Shown here piece after piece: positions 32,120 to 38,660 of a DNA stretch of 64,000 nucleotides. The position numbers and the translations under genes were made by a program. The notes below the pieces were generated by a model. That model made no database searches. It was not told where the DNA came from and was given only the letters and a program-made list of their open reading frames with translations. Origin of the DNA: a virus; the IMG/VR virus record IMGVR_UViG_3300035492_000411, positions 6 through 64,005 of that record; one strand, 5' to 3'. How positions within the stretch are numbered: position 1 is the stretch's first letter; the number at the start of each line of letters is the position of its first letter.

Positions 32120-32527
32120 TTAGACCTTGAAGATTTTGTTGGTGCCGTTGTCCCAGGTGACGATGATGTCGCCGCCGTTGGGGGTGATCGGCAGGCCGGT
32201 TGCCGTGTCGATGTAGGCGATCAGCGGGCTGGTCGCCTCGGTTCCGGTGTCGGCATAGATGATGATGGCCTCGATGGAGGCGCCGGAGACGCTGGTAAAG
32301 GTCACGTCCGCTCCGTCTGCTGCGCCGCCGGTGGTGGCCTTGCTGGTCAGCGTGACGGGGCCAGCGATACGCGCAGAGATCGGGATGTCCGCCAGATACT
32401 GGTGAACGGCGGTCTGCGGCGTGTAGGCGCCGGTATCAACCAGGATCACCTTGATGGTGTCGGTCATCCAGTTGATCTGAGCCTCAAGGAAGCGCTGGCG
32501 GGCGAAGTCGAAAAGCGTGTTAGCCAT
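32120..32527 (-). CDS. Conserved small tail/virion protein
   Basis: MANTLFDFARQRFLEAQINW..DTIKVILVD..PNGGDIIVTWDNG. Confidence 0.8.
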   Translation of the reverse strand: MANTLFDFARQRFLEAQINWMTDTIKVILVDTGAYTPQTAVHQYLADIPISARIAGPVTLTSKATTGGAADGADVTFTSVSGASIEAIIIYADTGTEATSPLIAYIDTATGLPITPNGGDIIVTWDNGTNKIFKV

Positions 32528-32702
32528 GAGTGTTCTCCACAGATTCAGGAGCACTCATGCGCGCCGGGGGCTTGATTGGGGTGCCAGGGGTGGCCTCGAT
32601 GAGCAGGCGCGCCACCTGGCCGGACTTCTTCTCCAGGCGAATCACGGCATCACCGACGATAAGCGCCTGTCCGGGCTTTAGGTCAACGTGCATCTTGGTC
32701 AT
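32520..32702 (-). CDS. CsrA/RsmA-fold-like small protein
   Basis: PGQALIVGDAVIRLEKKSGQVARLLIEA aligns with CsrA [28 protein letters not shown]. Confidence 0.55.
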   Translation of the reverse strand: MTKMHVDLKPGQALIVGDAVIRLEKKSGQVARLLIEATPGTPIKPPARMSAPESVENTHG

Positions 32703-33376
32703 GGCCAGAACGCCTCCACATGCTGCGGCACGTCCTCACGGGTCGCGCGGCGAAGATCGGCGCTCGGGCGCAGGCCGAAGTAGTCTTCAAAGGCTCGCTC
32801 TGCCTGGGCCGAGCGGTTCGGGTCGAATGCTTCCATATCCGGCACAGAGAAGCCCTTGTGCAGCGCCCACTGGATTAGGTGGCGGTGATGCTCGCGGTGA
32901 ATCGCCGGCTCGGCGGTGTTCTTGTTGGCAAGCGCCATGCCGGCCAGCGGCGTGCGATAGCATTCCAGCTTGAGCGTGGCAGCCTGCTCCGGGCTTGGCA
33001 CCAGGCGCAAGTCGGTGTCGCCCTGGATCGCGTACAGCGGGCACCCCACTTCGCCCCGCCAGCCTGGGCGCTCGGCGTCCAGGCTCTCGGTCGAGTACAG
33101 CAGCAGCATGCTTGGGCGCGATCCGTCAGCCGGATACAGGCCCAGGTGGGTCAGCTCGTACAGTGCCGGGTGCAGCGGGTAGACCGCCTGGCCGGCTGTC
33201 ACGGCAATCTGGCACACGGCCGCGTCCTGGCTTTCGTGGATCAGTCGCGCGCGAATACATGCCTCGCTGACGGCATCATTCAGCCAGGAGGCAATATCCT
33301 CATCGCTCCAGAAATACGGCTCAGCCAGGTCGTGCGCTTCCGTGCGAACGCGGCGGATCAGCTCGGCCAGGGTCAT
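32699..33376 (-). CDS. Head-tail adaptor
   Basis: MTLAELIRRVR..D..EPYFWSDEDI..WLNDA pattern; position after head genes. Confidence 0.75.
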   Translation of the reverse strand: MTLAELIRRVRTEAHDLAEPYFWSDEDIASWLNDAVSEACIRARLIHESQDAAVCQIAVTAGQAVYPLHPALYELTHLGLYPADGSRPSMLLLYSTESLDAERPGWRGEVGCPLYAIQGDTDLRLVPSPEQAATLKLECYRTPLAGMALANKNTAEPAIHREHHRHLIQWALHKGFSVPDMEAFDPNRSAQAERAFEDYFGLRPSADLRRATREDVPQHVEAFWP

Positions 33377-34194
33377 TACTGCGCCCCGAAGCGGGTGATG
33401 TGCTGGGTGACGGTTTCGCGCATGTCCTCCAGCTTGTCGCGCATGTTCAGCTTGATGCCGAACTGAACCAGGGCGAACTCAGCCAGGCCGGCCTTGGTGC
33501 TGATCTGATTCATCTGGTCGATTACAGCGAAGTCTTGGCGCTCGGCCTCGCGCTTGTCGCTGGTCTTTGCGCCCTGCTCCAGTTGCTCGGCGGTGTCGTC
33601 ACCGGCCGCCACGGCGCCCTCCACCTGCTTGAACAGGTCGAGGTGGCGCAGCAGCTTGCGGGCGACGATCTGCGGCACGGAGCGCGCCTGGCCCTTGGTG
33701 AAGGTCAGGCCGCTGGAATACAGGGTGTCTTGCCAGTAGTCGCGGCGGCCGATGTACTGGACGCCGATGTAGCCGGCCTGCACGCCTTCGATAGCCAGGG
33801 TCGGCGACGGCAGGCTGGCCAGAGCCTTGGCCACAGCGTCTTCGGCGTCGGGAATATCCTTGAGCGCATGCACCACGGCGCGGAACAGATAGTCCTTGAC
33901 CTTCTGCTCGACGGGCAGCTCCTCGTAGGGCACGCAGCACGGGTGAGTCTTGGCGTCCGGGTCTTTCACCGCGCCGTACACCCAGCCGTCAGCGATCTTC
34001 TGCTCCAGCCAGCTCTCGTGGGCCTGCTCGGGCGTCGCGTCGGGGTTTGCCAGGTGCATCTCTACGCCGGCAATTGCCGACTGCTGTTGCCACTCAGGCG
34101 CATCGGCCCAAGTCGGCTGGGAAAGGTCGCCTTGCGAGGCGCAATAGGCCGCGTTGATCGCGTGAGCAATGGCGGCAATGGCGGTGATCTTCAT
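33376..34194 (-). CDS. RyR-domain protein fused to a C-terminal phage domain
   Basis: PEQAHESWLEQKIADGWVYG..KD...KTHPCCVPYEELP..QK.KD signature of the RyR repeat. Confidence 0.8.
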   Translation of the reverse strand: MKITAIAAIAHAINAAYCASQGDLSQPTWADAPEWQQQSAIAGVEMHLANPDATPEQAHESWLEQKIADGWVYGAVKDPDAKTHPCCVPYEELPVEQKVKDYLFRAVVHALKDIPDAEDAVAKALASLPSPTLAIEGVQAGYIGVQYIGRRDYWQDTLYSSGLTFTKGQARSVPQIVARKLLRHLDLFKQVEGAVAAGDDTAEQLEQGAKTSDKREAERQDFAVIDQMNQISTKAGLAEFALVQFGIKLNMRDKLEDMRETVTQHITRFGAQ

Positions 34195-34218
34195 GGGGAG
34201 TCCTACTCCTGCGGGATG

Positions 34219-34244
34219 AGAAAGAGCCGGCGAAGGGCCGGCTC
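34219..34244 (-). terminator. Intrinsic terminator after the cement gene
   Basis: GAGCCGGC-CCTTC-GCCGGCTC followed by TTTCT. Confidence 0.6.
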
Positions 34245-34253
34245 TATCAGGGC

Positions 34254-34727
34254 TTAGCGAGCGCCGACTTGCTCGCCGTACACCAGCACCTTGATGTCAC
34301 TGGCCTTGGCATTGGCCGCCACGGCAGTGGTCAGGATCAGGCGTGCCGGCTTGGCCAGGGTCAGCAGCTTGGTGCCGGTGGCACGCTTGCGGCCGGCAGC
34401 AGCCAGGTCGATGCCAGAGCCGAAGTAGGCCGCGTCCTGCGGCGCCTCGGTCGAGTCGGTGCCGTCTTCGTACTTGAAGCCGAGCGAGCCGGTGATGGTG
34501 GCGGTCATGCCGGTGGTGACAATGATCTGTGCGTCATCCAGGCGCAGACCTTCCGGCAGCGGGCCAAGGTCGATCACGTCACCGACTGCAATCGCGGCAG
34601 TCGAGTCGGAATCGGCGGCGGCGCCGCTTGCCAGGGTGGCCAGGGCGAAGGACAGCACGGACAGATTGCCGTAGGGGGTGTTGCCGAACTGGCGCTTGAG
34701 CGCGCTTTTCAGGGATACGGTAGCCAT
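34254..34727 (-). CDS. Capsid cement/decoration protein
   Basis: 157 aa beta-rich, GDVIDLGPLPEG motif, directly after the capsid gene. Confidence 0.65.
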   Translation of the reverse strand: MATVSLKSALKRQFGNTPYGNLSVLSFALATLASGAAADSDSTAAIAVGDVIDLGPLPEGLRLDDAQIIVTTGMTATITGSLGFKYEDGTDSTEAPQDAAYFGSGIDLAAAGRKRATGTKLLTLAKPARLILTTAVAANAKASDIKVLVYGEQVGAR

Positions 34728-34789
34728 AAAAGGAGCCTCGTCTGAGTGAAGGAATGGGCGGGGTTAGCCGCCCATCGCGTCAGGGTGGG

Positions 34790-36082
34790 TTAGCCGACCT
34801 GATTCAGCGGCACCACGGTGTCGAGCACCGAGGCACCGTAGTCGGTGAACTCGACGCGCTCGCCGGTGTTGACCGCGAAACGGATCTTGGAGGTGCCGAG
34901 GATGGCGCCGATCAGCAGCTCCACCTTGTCGCCGTGATCCATCTCCTTCTCGCTCCAGAAGAACGGCACGCCGGACTTGTCGGAGCGGCCGAGCGCCTGG
35001 GCAACGGCCTGGCCGCCGAGCAGGATCGCGCGGTCCACCGCGTACTGAGTGCCGAAGCTGGACGGCACGACGCAGGTGCTCTCGGTTTCGCTGGCGAAGT
35101 CGGCGCAGTAGCGCACGGTGTTGCCGGCGAAGAAGCGGATCGGGATGTTCTGCTTGATGATCAGGAAGTTGTTCCACAGGCCGACTTCACCCTTGAAGAT
35201 CGGGTGCCCCTTGGCGTTGGCGGCGCGCGCCAGGGCGGCAGCCTGCATGGAGCGGAACGCCGGATCGGCAGCGAACTGGTTGTACTGCAACGGAGTCACC
35301 AGCAGCACGCGGATCGGGTCGTCCTCGGCGGCCTCGTCGCCCTCGAACTGGACGGGCGGCGGCGGCATGACCATCTCGTCCATCACTGCGCGCAGGGAAT
35401 CGACCACGCTCATGCTCAGCACGTCGGTGCTGGCAATATCCATCTCGCCCGCATTGACCTTGAAGCTGGTCACGCCAGAGCCGTCCACCATGAAGTGGCG
35501 GTTTTTGGTCGGCGCCTTGACGCGGTTGACCATTACGGCCGCGAACTTCGGATCGGTGTCGAGCGGCACGCTCCAGGTCTGGTTCATCACGTTGCCGCGA
35601 GCGCCGGCCGCATGGATGATCAGGCTCTGATCCAGGTAGCGGTCCATAGTCGCCTGTGCGACCGGGCGGCCCAGCTTGCGGAAGTCCACCGGCGAGCGAA
35701 TGTCGGTCATGGTGTCCGACAGCTTGACCGGGATACGGGCCTGGTTCACGCGCAGGCGGTCTTCCTCGATGCTCATGCCGGTGCCACGGCCCTCGGCGTA
35801 CTCGCTGCCCATGATCGGGATGGCGCCGAAGGGGTTGACCAGGTTGAAGGTGACTTCATCACCCATGCCCTTGCCCAAGTCCATGCAGCGGACGATCGGC
35901 AGGTGCTTGCTGGTCTGCTTCTTGATGGTGGCCACGGCGCCGGCCTCGCCCTTGGGCATGGAGCCGATCAGACGCGACAGCTTGTTGTTGCGCTTGAGGT
36001 GAGTGGCGAACAGACCTACGGCCTGCTGCATCATGTTTTTCTTGTCGCCATAGGCGGCATGCGAGTTCTGAGCGGTAGGCAT
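34790..36082 (-). CDS. Major capsid protein (N4-gp56/DUF4043 type)
   Basis: PIVRCMDLGKGMGDEVTFNL..EGRG..LRVNQAR..DHGDKVELLIG. Confidence 0.85.
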   Translation of the reverse strand: MPTAQNSHAAYGDKKNMMQQAVGLFATHLKRNNKLSRLIGSMPKGEAGAVATIKKQTSKHLPIVRCMDLGKGMGDEVTFNLVNPFGAIPIMGSEYAEGRGTGMSIEEDRLRVNQARIPVKLSDTMTDIRSPVDFRKLGRPVAQATMDRYLDQSLIIHAAGARGNVMNQTWSVPLDTDPKFAAVMVNRVKAPTKNRHFMVDGSGVTSFKVNAGEMDIASTDVLSMSVVDSLRAVMDEMVMPPPPVQFEGDEAAEDDPIRVLLVTPLQYNQFAADPAFRSMQAAALARAANAKGHPIFKGEVGLWNNFLIIKQNIPIRFFAGNTVRYCADFASETESTCVVPSSFGTQYAVDRAILLGGQAVAQALGRSDKSGVPFFWSEKEMDHGDKVELLIGAILGTSKIRFAVNTGERVEFTDYGASVLDTVVPLNQVG

Positions 36083-36095
36083 GCTCGTGCTCTCC

Positions 36096-37121
36096 TTAGA
36101 GGTTGTTTAGCCAGGCTTCCATCTGCTCGCGGGACATGGAATCCATGTTCTGCAAGAGCTCGAAGCCTTCCATATGAGCCAGCGCTTCATCTCGACCCAC
36201 TCCAGCCGAACGGCCACCGGCAATGTCGGTTAGGCTGTTCGGAACCGGCGCGGTCGCTTGTGCGGCGGCCTGCTGTGCTTTGGTTTTCACATCGGCCGCA
36301 GCCGATGCACCTGGTTGAGTTACACCTGTGGCCTGCTTGAAGGCGTCGAACAGTTCAATCACCTGCCCGGTGCTGCCCTGCTTGAGCACGGCGGCGTAGG
36401 CATCACGCGCGTAGGAGGGCTGCGAATTGATCCAGTCGGCCAGCTCCCTGCTCTCGACAATGGAGTCGGCGTCCGGGTGCGCCTCGTAGATGGCGGCGTA
36501 GTGCTGATTGGTGAGCTCGCTCGCCTGCTTGGCCTGGATTGGCTCCAGCGCCTTGCTTACCCTCGCCTCCACCTGGCTTGCCACCAGCGTGGCGATACCC
36601 TTCGCCAGCGCCTCCTCGGAGAAGTCCCCGAAGATCCCCGGATCGACGCCCTGGTCGATGGCCGCTTGCGCTGCCGCCACCTGGTTGTCGGTCTTGGTCG
36701 GTGCCTCGCCCGCCTCGGCACGCGCTTGAGCTTGAGATCGAAGGCTCTCCAGCTCGCGTTGTGCCGCTGCCGCTCGTTCCTCTGCCGCTTCACGCAGCGC
36801 GCGCTCGGATCTTGCCTGTTCGCGCGCCTCGGTCAGGCGGTCAAAAGGAATGGTGTGCTTGCCGTCCTTGGTCAGGACTACGGTGTTGTCGGCATTCAGC
36901 TCAGGCTCCTGGCCCTTCTGCTTGCCTTCGTCCGCAGCCTCACTGTTCGCGCTCTCGGCCTCTTTTCCACCATGCGCCTGGGCAGCCTCGGGCTGTGCTG
37001 CCTGCTCCGACGACAATGCGCCGGTATCGCCCTGTCCCAGCCCAAGGAGCTGGTCTAGTTGCTCGGGGGAAATCTCGCCGTCAAGCGACTCGATGAACTC
37101 GTTTTCCTGATCGGTATTCAT
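36096..37121 (-). CDS. Capsid scaffolding protein
   Basis: Acidic, coiled-coil, IPFDRL motif, precedes the capsid gene. Confidence 0.75.
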   Translation of the reverse strand: MNTDQENEFIESLDGEISPEQLDQLLGLGQGDTGALSSEQAAQPEAAQAHGGKEAESANSEAADEGKQKGQEPELNADNTVVLTKDGKHTIPFDRLTEAREQARSERALREAAEERAAAAQRELESLRSQAQARAEAGEAPTKTDNQVAAAQAAIDQGVDPGIFGDFSEEALAKGIATLVASQVEARVSKALEPIQAKQASELTNQHYAAIYEAHPDADSIVESRELADWINSQPSYARDAYAAVLKQGSTGQVIELFDAFKQATGVTQPGASAAADVKTKAQQAAAQATAPVPNSLTDIAGGRSAGVGRDEALAHMEGFELLQNMDSMSREQMEAWLNNL

Positions 37122-37304: not shown

Positions 37305-38660
37305 CTATTCCTTGTAGCGGATCAGGCTGCGCGGATCGGCAATCGGACGCAGCTCGACAGCGCCGATGCTGAGCGTGCCAGTGCCGGCCTGCGCGTTGTT
37401 GGTCTTGATCTGCGTGCGCCATTGCAGCGTGCTCGCAGCGTCGATGATCTGGAAGGGCGGGGTTTCGATCACGCCGCTCCAGGCTTCGGCAGGCCAGGCG
37501 TCCGCGTTGTAGTCCTCCATGCCGTAAGCGATGATTCCGCCCGTAGCGCCGTCGCGCAGCATCTGCGTGATGCCTTGCCAGCCTGCCCAGGCGCCGCAGT
37601 CCACTTCTACCGAGGCGCGCACCCAAGTGCCGACCGGCAGGTTATGCGCCACGCTGGTTACTGCGGTCTGGAAGTAGTAGAGGTCGGTGCCGGCTGCGCC
37701 GCTTGGCGTGATAACCAACTGCTGCGCATTGCCGCGCCCGTTGCTGCGAGCGACCTTGCTGCACGCTACTGCGCCCGCGCCTGACTGGCGAACCACCCGC
37801 ATGTTGTCCGCAACCGACCCCGACGCTCCGGTGCCGACCGTGCCCGCCGTACCGGAAAGCATAGGGTTGGGCATCAGGTTGCCGCGCGGGTTGAGGGTGG
37901 CGTCGTACAGGTCGTCGGGCGCCACAATTGCGCGCTGGCGAGGAACAAGGAAGCCTTTGAGCGCGTTGCCGAGTTCCTTGCCAACTTCGTAGGCGGAGAT
38001 AGTGCTGAAATGCGTGCCGTCCGGGCTGTAGCCGGCCTTCGGGCTGCCGTCGGCGCTGTTGAAGTCTACCCACGGCTTGTTCCAGTCCAGGCTGTAGCAG
38101 CCATTTCGCCCAGCAACATAGTCGAAGCCCTGCTGGTTCACCCAGTGGGCTTTCTTGCGGTAGCCAGACGCGACCGACCAGCTCGACGTGCTGCGGGCCA
38201 GGATCGGCAGCAGCACGACCTTCTTGCCCAGCGCCAGGTAGAAGTCCACCAGCGCCGCGCGCATCTGGTGAATGTACTCCTTGGTCTGCGTGGGAATGTC
38301 GTTGGTGCCGCCGTCGATCACGACCACATCGCACTCTACGTTGGTCGCCAGGTAGAAACGCCGATTCCATATCTCAGACAGGACGGCGCCGCCAATGCCG
38401 GCATTCAGCCCACGGAAATACACGGTGCCAACGCCATCAGGCTCCCAGCCCGCGCGCACGGTCGGGTCATACCAGGCTGGCATGTCGAACAGCCCAGGAT
38501 TGAGCGTGCGCGCCCAGTTGAGCGGGCCTTTCGACCATGTGGATAGCTTGAATGAACTGTTAGCCGTGTGGTGATGCTGCATCAGCGACGTGCCGAGCAG
38601 AGCCACGCGGTTGCCGCCGCCAGCAACGGGCGCGGCCTTTGGGTTGAGTAGTAGGCTCAT
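37305..38660 (-). CDS. SGNH/GDSL esterase with a C-terminal CBM-like domain
   Basis: Blocks GTSL, NAGIGG, GGTND, DGTH. Confidence 0.85.
   Translation of the reverse strand: MSLLLNPKAAPVAGGGNRVALLGTSLMQHHHTANSSFKLSTWSKGPLNWARTLNPGLFDMPAWYDPTVRAGWEPDGVGTVYFRGLNAGIGGAVLSEIWNRRFYLATNVECDVVVIDGGTNDIPTQTKEYIHQMRAALVDFYLALGKKVVLLPILARSTSSWSVASGYRKKAHWVNQQGFDYVAGRNGCYSLDWNKPWVDFNSADGSPKAGYSPDGTHFSTISAYEVGKELGNALKGFLVPRQRAIVAPDDLYDATLNPRGNLMPNPMLSGTAGTVGTGASGSVADNMRVVRQSGAGAVACSKVARSNGRGNAQQLVITPSGAAGTDLYYFQTAVTSVAHNLPVGTWVRASVEVDCGAWAGWQGITQMLRDGATGGIIAYGMEDYNADAWPAEAWSGVIETPPFQIIDAASTLQWRTQIKTNNAQAGTGTLSIGAVELRPIADPRSLIRYKE

Follow-up and report, generated by a model that had tools for sequence, protein, structure and literature searches.

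The 272-amino-acid protein analyzed here is probably a two-part late protein, in which an anti-Thoeris RyR domain that binds cADPR is fused to a core protein of the phage head module. Its gene lies in a window (the whole stretch of DNA under study, 64,000 nucleotides in length) that comes from an F116-like (Hollowayvirus-like) temperate podophage, whose provirus record is 64.4 kb long. On every feature that can be computed, the protein belongs to the RyR Tad / RyDEP family and to the group of F116 gp45. In two preprints from 2026, RyR domains of phages were shown to sequester or cleave 2'/3'cADPR and to overcome Thoeris (PMC13232231, PMC13251945). The RyR anti-Thoeris family, and even an F116-type member of it, is already in this literature, so that the gain is modest with respect to the main function. 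What our analysis adds is the reading of the fusion as a core gene plus an accessory, together with the definition of the core module as a stand-alone protein.

The position of the gene among late structural genes is well conserved. The open reading frame begins with ATG behind an AGGAG-type ribosome-binding site, and its product aligns with PHROG 11782 over the full length (E 6.7e-84; aa 1-271 on positions 1-288 of 290). Late genes on the minus strand follow the order scaffold-like gene, capsid, structural protein, RyR fusion, and adaptor (Table 1). A location between the PHROG 8260 gene and an SU10-type adaptor is common to the PHROG 11782 group, as established for 80 viral contigs by a full-length alignment search. 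The upstream neighbor, which the preliminary description called "cement," has an orthologue in phage H66 (H66_0046) whose presence in the virion has been verified by mass spectrometry (MS). On the downstream side, the ATG of the adaptor shares one base with the TAA of the RyR-fusion gene (TAATG). Of 35 related viral loci, 32 have an adaptor start that lies -3 to +7 nt from this stop; in the remaining three, no adaptor ORF was called.

Table 1. Features of the RyR-fusion gene and the late genes around it (positions in the window).
Feature	Position	Strand	Basis or remark
Scaffold-like gene	36096-37121	-	Late gene order
Major capsid protein, N4 gp56 type	34790..36082	-	PF13252, E 1.2e-122
Upstream virion structural protein, 157 aa	34254..34727	-	PHROG 8260
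Terminator-like hairpin, then UUUCUCAU	34220..34248	-	Sequence; -25 kcal/mol, z -3.4
RyR-fusion gene (RyR domain, linker, and head-module protein), 272 aa	33376..34194	-	Orthologue of F116 gp45 / H66 gp47
RyR (Repeat12-like) domain, aa 1-118	33841..34194	-	PF02026; structure matches; alignment to RyDEP and CB1 gp68
Ala/Pro-rich linker, aa 119-141	33772..33840	-	Length varies; some relatives with coiled-coil inserts
C-module part 1, small beta domain, aa 142-191	33622..33771	-	Alignment; model pLDDT >90
C-module part 2, acidic variable segment (DDT motif) and long helix, aa 192-229	33508..33621	-	Alignment, models
C-module part 3, two C-terminal helices (aa 234-245, 255-269)	33379..33507	-	Structure search
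SU10-type head-to-tail adaptor, 225 aa, downstream	32699..33376	-	PF24175, E 1.7e-30

Other observations concern the region as a whole. Directly after the adaptor is a 60-aa ORF (32520-32702, minus strand), whose F116 counterpart, p47, lies inside the structural operon and is annotated as a "CsrA-like regulator." Between portal and scaffold there is a 451-aa ORF (37305-38660, minus strand), at a place where F116 carries a 303-aa gene, p41. Two IMG/VR UViGs (L012 and L014) contain this phage region with 100% identity. Public DNA runs (X1-X14) contain 66-100% of the sampled words of the region and derive from metagenomes of a tar pit, the subsurface, drinking water, wastewater, and fish gut, along with isolates of one organism. 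Finally, a full-length orthologue with 49% identity is found within an F116-like structural block of MW749009.1 (24442-25182). This record is named Bacillus phage vB_BspP_Dartukuta, a host label that looks odd for a phage group that is otherwise proteobacterial.

The N-terminal portion of the protein is a helical, very conserved RyR domain. PF02026 matches aa 55-101 (E 1.9e-11), and its score of 44.5 bits exceeds the gathering threshold of 27.4. The structure model, which has a pLDDT of 86-95 across aa 1-110, matches the Repeat12 domain of human RyR3 (9l91_A; Z 10.2, rmsd 3.1, 117 residues aligned), in addition to 6uhi (Z 10.3) and a Bacteroides RyR protein (3nrt_B; Z 9.6). Neither PADLOC nor NCBIfam holds a family for the protein. 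The preliminary description had seen an RyR signature in aa 1-110, then a linker and an unrelated C-terminal domain, and this anatomy is borne out by the PF02026 match, by a predicted RyR fold spanning aa 1-117, and by conservation of the C-terminal motifs that it had picked out (V145-Y159, VQYIGRRDYWQDTLY; V173-P174; and V177-H184, VARKLLRH).

Comparison with characterized proteins suggests what this domain may bind. Fedorova et al. independently described gp68 of Pectobacterium phage vB_PatP_CB1 as RyR Tad, a dimeric sponge for 3'cADPR (KD 43 nM), 2'cADPR, and cADPR that binds its ligands through H129/W132, K147/H154, and K170/D171, as mutations showed (PMC13251945). In a gap-free alignment, these three pairs correspond to H59/W62, K77/H84, and K100/D101 of our protein, which would form a putative 2'/3'cADPR pocket. 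Across 156 fused relatives, conservation is 99% for H59, 100% for W62, 90% for K77, 97% for H84, 96% for K100, and 97% for D101. The RyR domain shares 59% identity with that of CB1 gp68 by tblastn (aa 20-112) and 56% in the alignment. Furthermore, the RyR domain is 68% identical between the window and F116, more than the capsid protein (60%) or the C-terminal module (35%; hereafter C-module), which indicates strong constraint on the domain; the adaptor stands at 70%. Because all six pocket residues are retained in a homolog of characterized RyR proteins, we read the domain as a putative cADPR binder, and most likely as a sponge.

The resemblance to CB1 gp68, which is homolog H7 of the other preprint, extends beyond the Repeat12-like domain and its 3'cADPR contacts. 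Both are two-domain proteins, and the partner domain of each also occurs as a separate ORF. Yet the two differ in domain order, since gp68 has its RyR domain at the C terminus, preceded by an unrelated beta domain, while here it is N-terminal; hhalign revealed no relation between our C-module and the N-domain of gp68. They also differ in context. The gene for gp68 resides beside a primase in an early anti-signaling hotspot of a lytic N4-like phage, whereas ours belongs to a temperate phage and lies in its late head operon. More broadly, characterized RyR Tad and RyDEP genes occupy early or middle anti-defense loci, not a structural operon, which is a point against an anti-Thoeris role for our protein. 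As with Tad1, Tad2, and other anti-Thoeris sponges, gcADPR sequestration would be expected here by analogy, although those proteins have unrelated folds and are products of early genes. The closest architectural relatives are F116 gp45, H66 gp47, and LKA5 gp45, which have the same three parts in the same slot between a structural protein and the adaptor but are only ~45% identical overall and contain a longer, coiled-coil-like linker. The preliminary description had envisaged a phage sponge or hydrolase for immune second messengers. For gcADPR, this idea is upheld by the two preprints and by the conserved contact residues, while its extension to cyclic oligonucleotides found no support in anything we saw.

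An argument can be made that the domain is instead an enzyme. Lopez Rivera et al. gave the name RyDEP to gp78 of Mycobacterium phage DyoEdafos and showed it to be an inverting glycosidase that acts on 2'/3'cADPR, in which H75 and D117 form the dyad, W78 stacks on the adenine, and H100 holds the phosphates (PMC13232231). RyDEP shares Pfam family and fold with our domain, and its H75, W78, H100, and D117 correspond in the alignment to H59, W62, H84, and D101, so that equivalents of the catalytic dyad are present. Conversion of 2'/3'cADPR to ADPR would also be better suited than a stoichiometric sponge to a gene whose late expression appears to be attenuated. However, in the accessible portions of that preprint, eight further RyR domains from phages were examined, of which six bound the signals and none cleaved them, even though all eight keep the dyad; two of these homologs were sponges of nanomolar affinity that overcame Thoeris in vivo (PMC13232231). 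Conservation of the H/D dyad fails to separate sponges from the glycosidase, which counts against our preferred reading as well. The noncleaving set includes homolog H5 (UniProt A0A481V2A2), the nearest assayed relative of our protein, which has the same architecture as F116 gp45, is near-identical to it, and is 68% identical to our protein in the RyR domain; the same portions of the preprint indicate that the H5 assay used the RyR domain alone (aa 1-114 cloned). Moreover, RyDEP is a single-domain protein encoded inside a NARP1 NAD-salvage operon, there are no adjoining NARP1 genes in the window, and identity to RyDEP is 32-39% (39% by tblastn, 35% in alignment), our domain being closer to the sponge CB1 gp68 (56-59%) than to RyDEP (35-39%). 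From these sequence relationships, cleavage by the RyR domain seems unlikely, and we would assign a glycosidase of the RyDEP kind a probability of about one in ten.

The remainder of the protein was delineated from an alignment of 35 relatives and a confident structure model (pLDDT 88.8, pTM 0.47), the pTM of which points to domains that are independent of one another. Model confidence drops in the linker (pLDDT 56-70, and below 50 at aa 131-135). The small beta domain that follows is marked by the motif YIGRR..W.D..Y.TGL.F..GQ.R..P...A.KLLRH.DLF, five residues of which (Y147, G149, D156, P174, and H184) are invariant across the 35 relatives, and the last part of the C-module ends in a conserved FG.

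Our results reveal that the C-module exists in its own right. The C-terminal 136 aa correspond to PHROG 19474 (profile match to aa 143-270, E 4e-19), and an exhaustive search with aa 137-272 returned 368 clusters at 50% identity. Among the best 150 of these 368 cluster representatives, 98 were stand-alone proteins of 125-160 aa, 41 were fused to RyR, and 11 carried other N-terminal extensions (coiled coils, frameshifted RyR, or doubtful gene starts). The preliminary description had suggested looking in relatives for the C-terminal gene without its fusion partner; such a gene exists, is common, and occupies the same slot. Specifically, a stand-alone gene sits between the structural protein and the adaptor, behind the capsid gene, in Shewanella Y11 (WIF22018), Pseudoalteromonas Y7 (WPJ30571), and Achromobacter CF418P1. 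The Y11 and Y7 proteins match the C-terminal 136 aa, sharing the motifs and the slot upstream of the adaptor but lacking the RyR domain. An identical slot holds a coiled-coil-extended C-module (P0228) in a metagenomic contig (L009:5001-5555). In the C-module tree, which is poorly resolved, the well-supported branches alone require that the RyR state switched no fewer than four times. One of the 41 fusions, P0136 (214 aa), retains only an RyR remnant, with the outer helices kept and the ligand-binding core deleted. Given that stand-alone C-modules are common in the same slot and that the RyR state has changed at least four times, the C-module is, to judge from these sequences, a core head-module gene on which the RyR domain is an accessory, gained or lost repeatedly.

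Two side observations pertain to this family. In P0228 and P0246, an N-terminal coiled coil takes the place of RyR. In addition, orthologues or stand-alone C-modules are labeled "alanyl-tRNA synthetase" or "Anti-CRISPR protein" in several records (MK511039-MK511051, OQ927986, OR791114, and BK061591), and the former is also the GenBank label of the stand-alone Y11 and Y7 proteins. Our analyses yielded no support for either label.

The modular history of the protein bears on another explanation, in which the RyR domain serves as a sensor of ATP, ADP, ADPR, or an NAD-derived nucleotide that regulates the C-module, or else as an oligomerization domain. The Repeat12 domain of RyR3 binds ATP, ADP, and drugs, as cited in the RyR preprints, and the domain considered here is expressed late and is attached to a protein of the morphogenesis module. 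Furthermore, no internal in-frame start with a Shine-Dalgarno sequence that would release a free C-module is conserved among 33 orthologues, and therefore the fused protein must do both jobs. Regulation of this kind is nevertheless hard to reconcile with the fact that most relatives do the job of the C-module without an RyR domain, that the domain has been gained or lost repeatedly, with its core missing from one relative, and that the pocket corresponds residue for residue to the set of cADPR contacts. We thus consider a sensor or oligomerization domain very unlikely.

Our best guess is that, in the F116 group, the C-module serves assembly or packaging as an accessory factor. The isolated module is modeled with confidence (pLDDT 91.3), and Foldseek searches of PDB, BFVD, and the Atlas returned uncharacterized phage proteins, generic small beta domains (GINS and the ArsM C terminus), and three-helix units. 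The end of the long helix together with the C-terminal helices weakly matches three-helix units of the HeH/SAP/Rho_N type. Weak structure matches include the C-terminal part of T4 endonuclease VII (Z 6.7), the SAP domain of PIAS1 (1v66; Z 4.9), and the N-domain of Rho (1a62; Z 4.6), and the nearest named Atlas clusters are HeH and Rho_N, with scores of 0.83-0.85 that are to be taken as a lead only. Pfam searches of 53 stand-alone C-modules gave scattered chance matches, with no Rho_N, HeH, or SAP among them, and a PDB sequence-profile search with the C-module retrieved nothing meaningful. YqbF of the Bacillus subtilis skin prophage (2HJQ) likewise has a beta domain followed by HeH-like helices, but its match is in the range of chance (Z 6.0, 92 residues aligned, rmsd 11.1), as is the weak resemblance of the beta domain to the C-domain of lambda gpFI (Z 4.5). 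Lambda FI occupies an analogous slot between the capsid and head-tail connector genes, and yqbF is presumably located between such genes too. Neither protein has a sequence-profile relation to the C-module (hhalign probability of 0.4% for gpFI), and the comparison is one of analogy only. A comparison with N4 gp55 by hhalign also found no relation. Because SU10 has an adaptor of the same type but no C-module gene, the C-module is not an obligatory or general partner of that adaptor.

Expression of the gene may be damped. A terminator-like hairpin is situated between the structural gene and the RyR-fusion gene (Table 1), and a terminator is annotated at the equivalent place in the H66 record; the hairpin was absent from the list produced by a consensus scan. 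It probably lowers the expression of the RyR-fusion gene and of the genes downstream. This arrangement counts against our preferred reading, since a sponge needs to be abundant. Near-identical contigs from wastewater metatranscriptomes match parts of the gene (e.g., 33545-33781 and 33667-33850), with patchy cover and with DNA carry-over as a possible source. The Shine-Dalgarno region (34197-34209, minus strand) can itself pair, forming a small hairpin (GGAGU-AGG-ACUCC) just 5' of the ATG, which might damp translation. We also considered a promoter of the gene's own that would allow moron-like expression in the lysogen, but no sigma-70-like site was found within 32400-36400, a weak test whose outcome is in keeping with late expression.

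From these observations, we propose how the preferred reading, that of a late cADPR-binding fusion protein, would work. By analogy with RyDEP and RyR Tad, aa 1-118 would form a back-to-back dimer through helices alpha1 and alpha4, and the six-residue pocket in each protomer would bind 3'cADPR and 2'cADPR made by TIR proteins, such that ThsA-type effectors would stay off, with sequestration likelier than cleavage. A flexible linker connects the RyR domain, in frame, with an intact PHROG 19474 protein made up of the beta domain, the long helix, and the HeH-like helices. Translation of this protein is coupled to that of the adaptor, and its role is probably in morphogenesis of the head or neck. 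Through this fusion, the anti-Thoeris domain would fall under the control of the late operon, downstream of the attenuating hairpin. Known triggers of Thoeris include late structural proteins, and activation of type II Thoeris in N4-like Pseudomonas phages is determined by tail-fiber proteins (PMC13251945). Late-operon control would therefore mean that the RyR protein is made when the structural proteins that trigger Thoeris appear.

Alternatively, the protein could be delivered by the virion, with the C-module docking on the procapsid, portal, or adaptor and the RyR domain being released in the next host. Several features are in keeping with such delivery, including the placement of the gene in the head-neck block, its translational coupling to the adaptor, the conservation of the C-module in that slot, and the presence in this phage group of a giant virion protein that bears cytoplasmic enzyme domains. 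The preliminary description had raised the possibility that the protein is packaged via its fused part and so acts upon entry, an idea that found no support. The GenBank record of H66 marks eight virion proteins as verified by MS (portal, capsid protein, gp46, adaptor gp48, and four others). Both products that flank H66 gp47, the RyR protein, are on this list and gp47 itself is unmarked, which is weak evidence given how short the list is. A low-copy protein could be missed among only eight, yet the 12-copy portal and adaptor were detected. Furthermore, SU10 has the same type of adaptor without such a gene, and the few molecules that could be injected would make a poor sponge. Because late structural proteins can themselves trigger Thoeris signaling, delivery at entry is unnecessary and an antagonist made late is sensible. 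We therefore see only a slim chance, somewhat above that of the glycosidase, for delivery by the virion.

A related idea, to which we would give similarly little weight, is that the C-module is a docking handle for the capsid or neck that tethers a cADPR-binding dimer to assembling particles. If so, the particle would carry a sponge to the next cell, or the signal would be mopped up where TIR proteins meet their triggers, and the N terminus of the head-module gene would be a general cargo site that holds nothing, a coiled coil, or RyR.

Taken together, our findings place what would be a RyR-type member of the anti-Thoeris proteins in temperate F116-like Pseudomonas phages, where it is welded to a gene of the morphogenesis module and apparently expressed late. 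It is distinct from the characterized members in its domain order, in its unrelated partner domain, and in being encoded, in a temperate phage, within the late structural operon. Our analysis corrects the database labels of orthologues as alanyl-tRNA synthetase or anti-CRISPR protein, and it identifies PHROG 19474 as a widespread, unannotated head-module protein that is tolerant of N-terminal cargo. More generally, these phages offer a natural system in which to ask whether timing or localization matters for sponges of immune signals.
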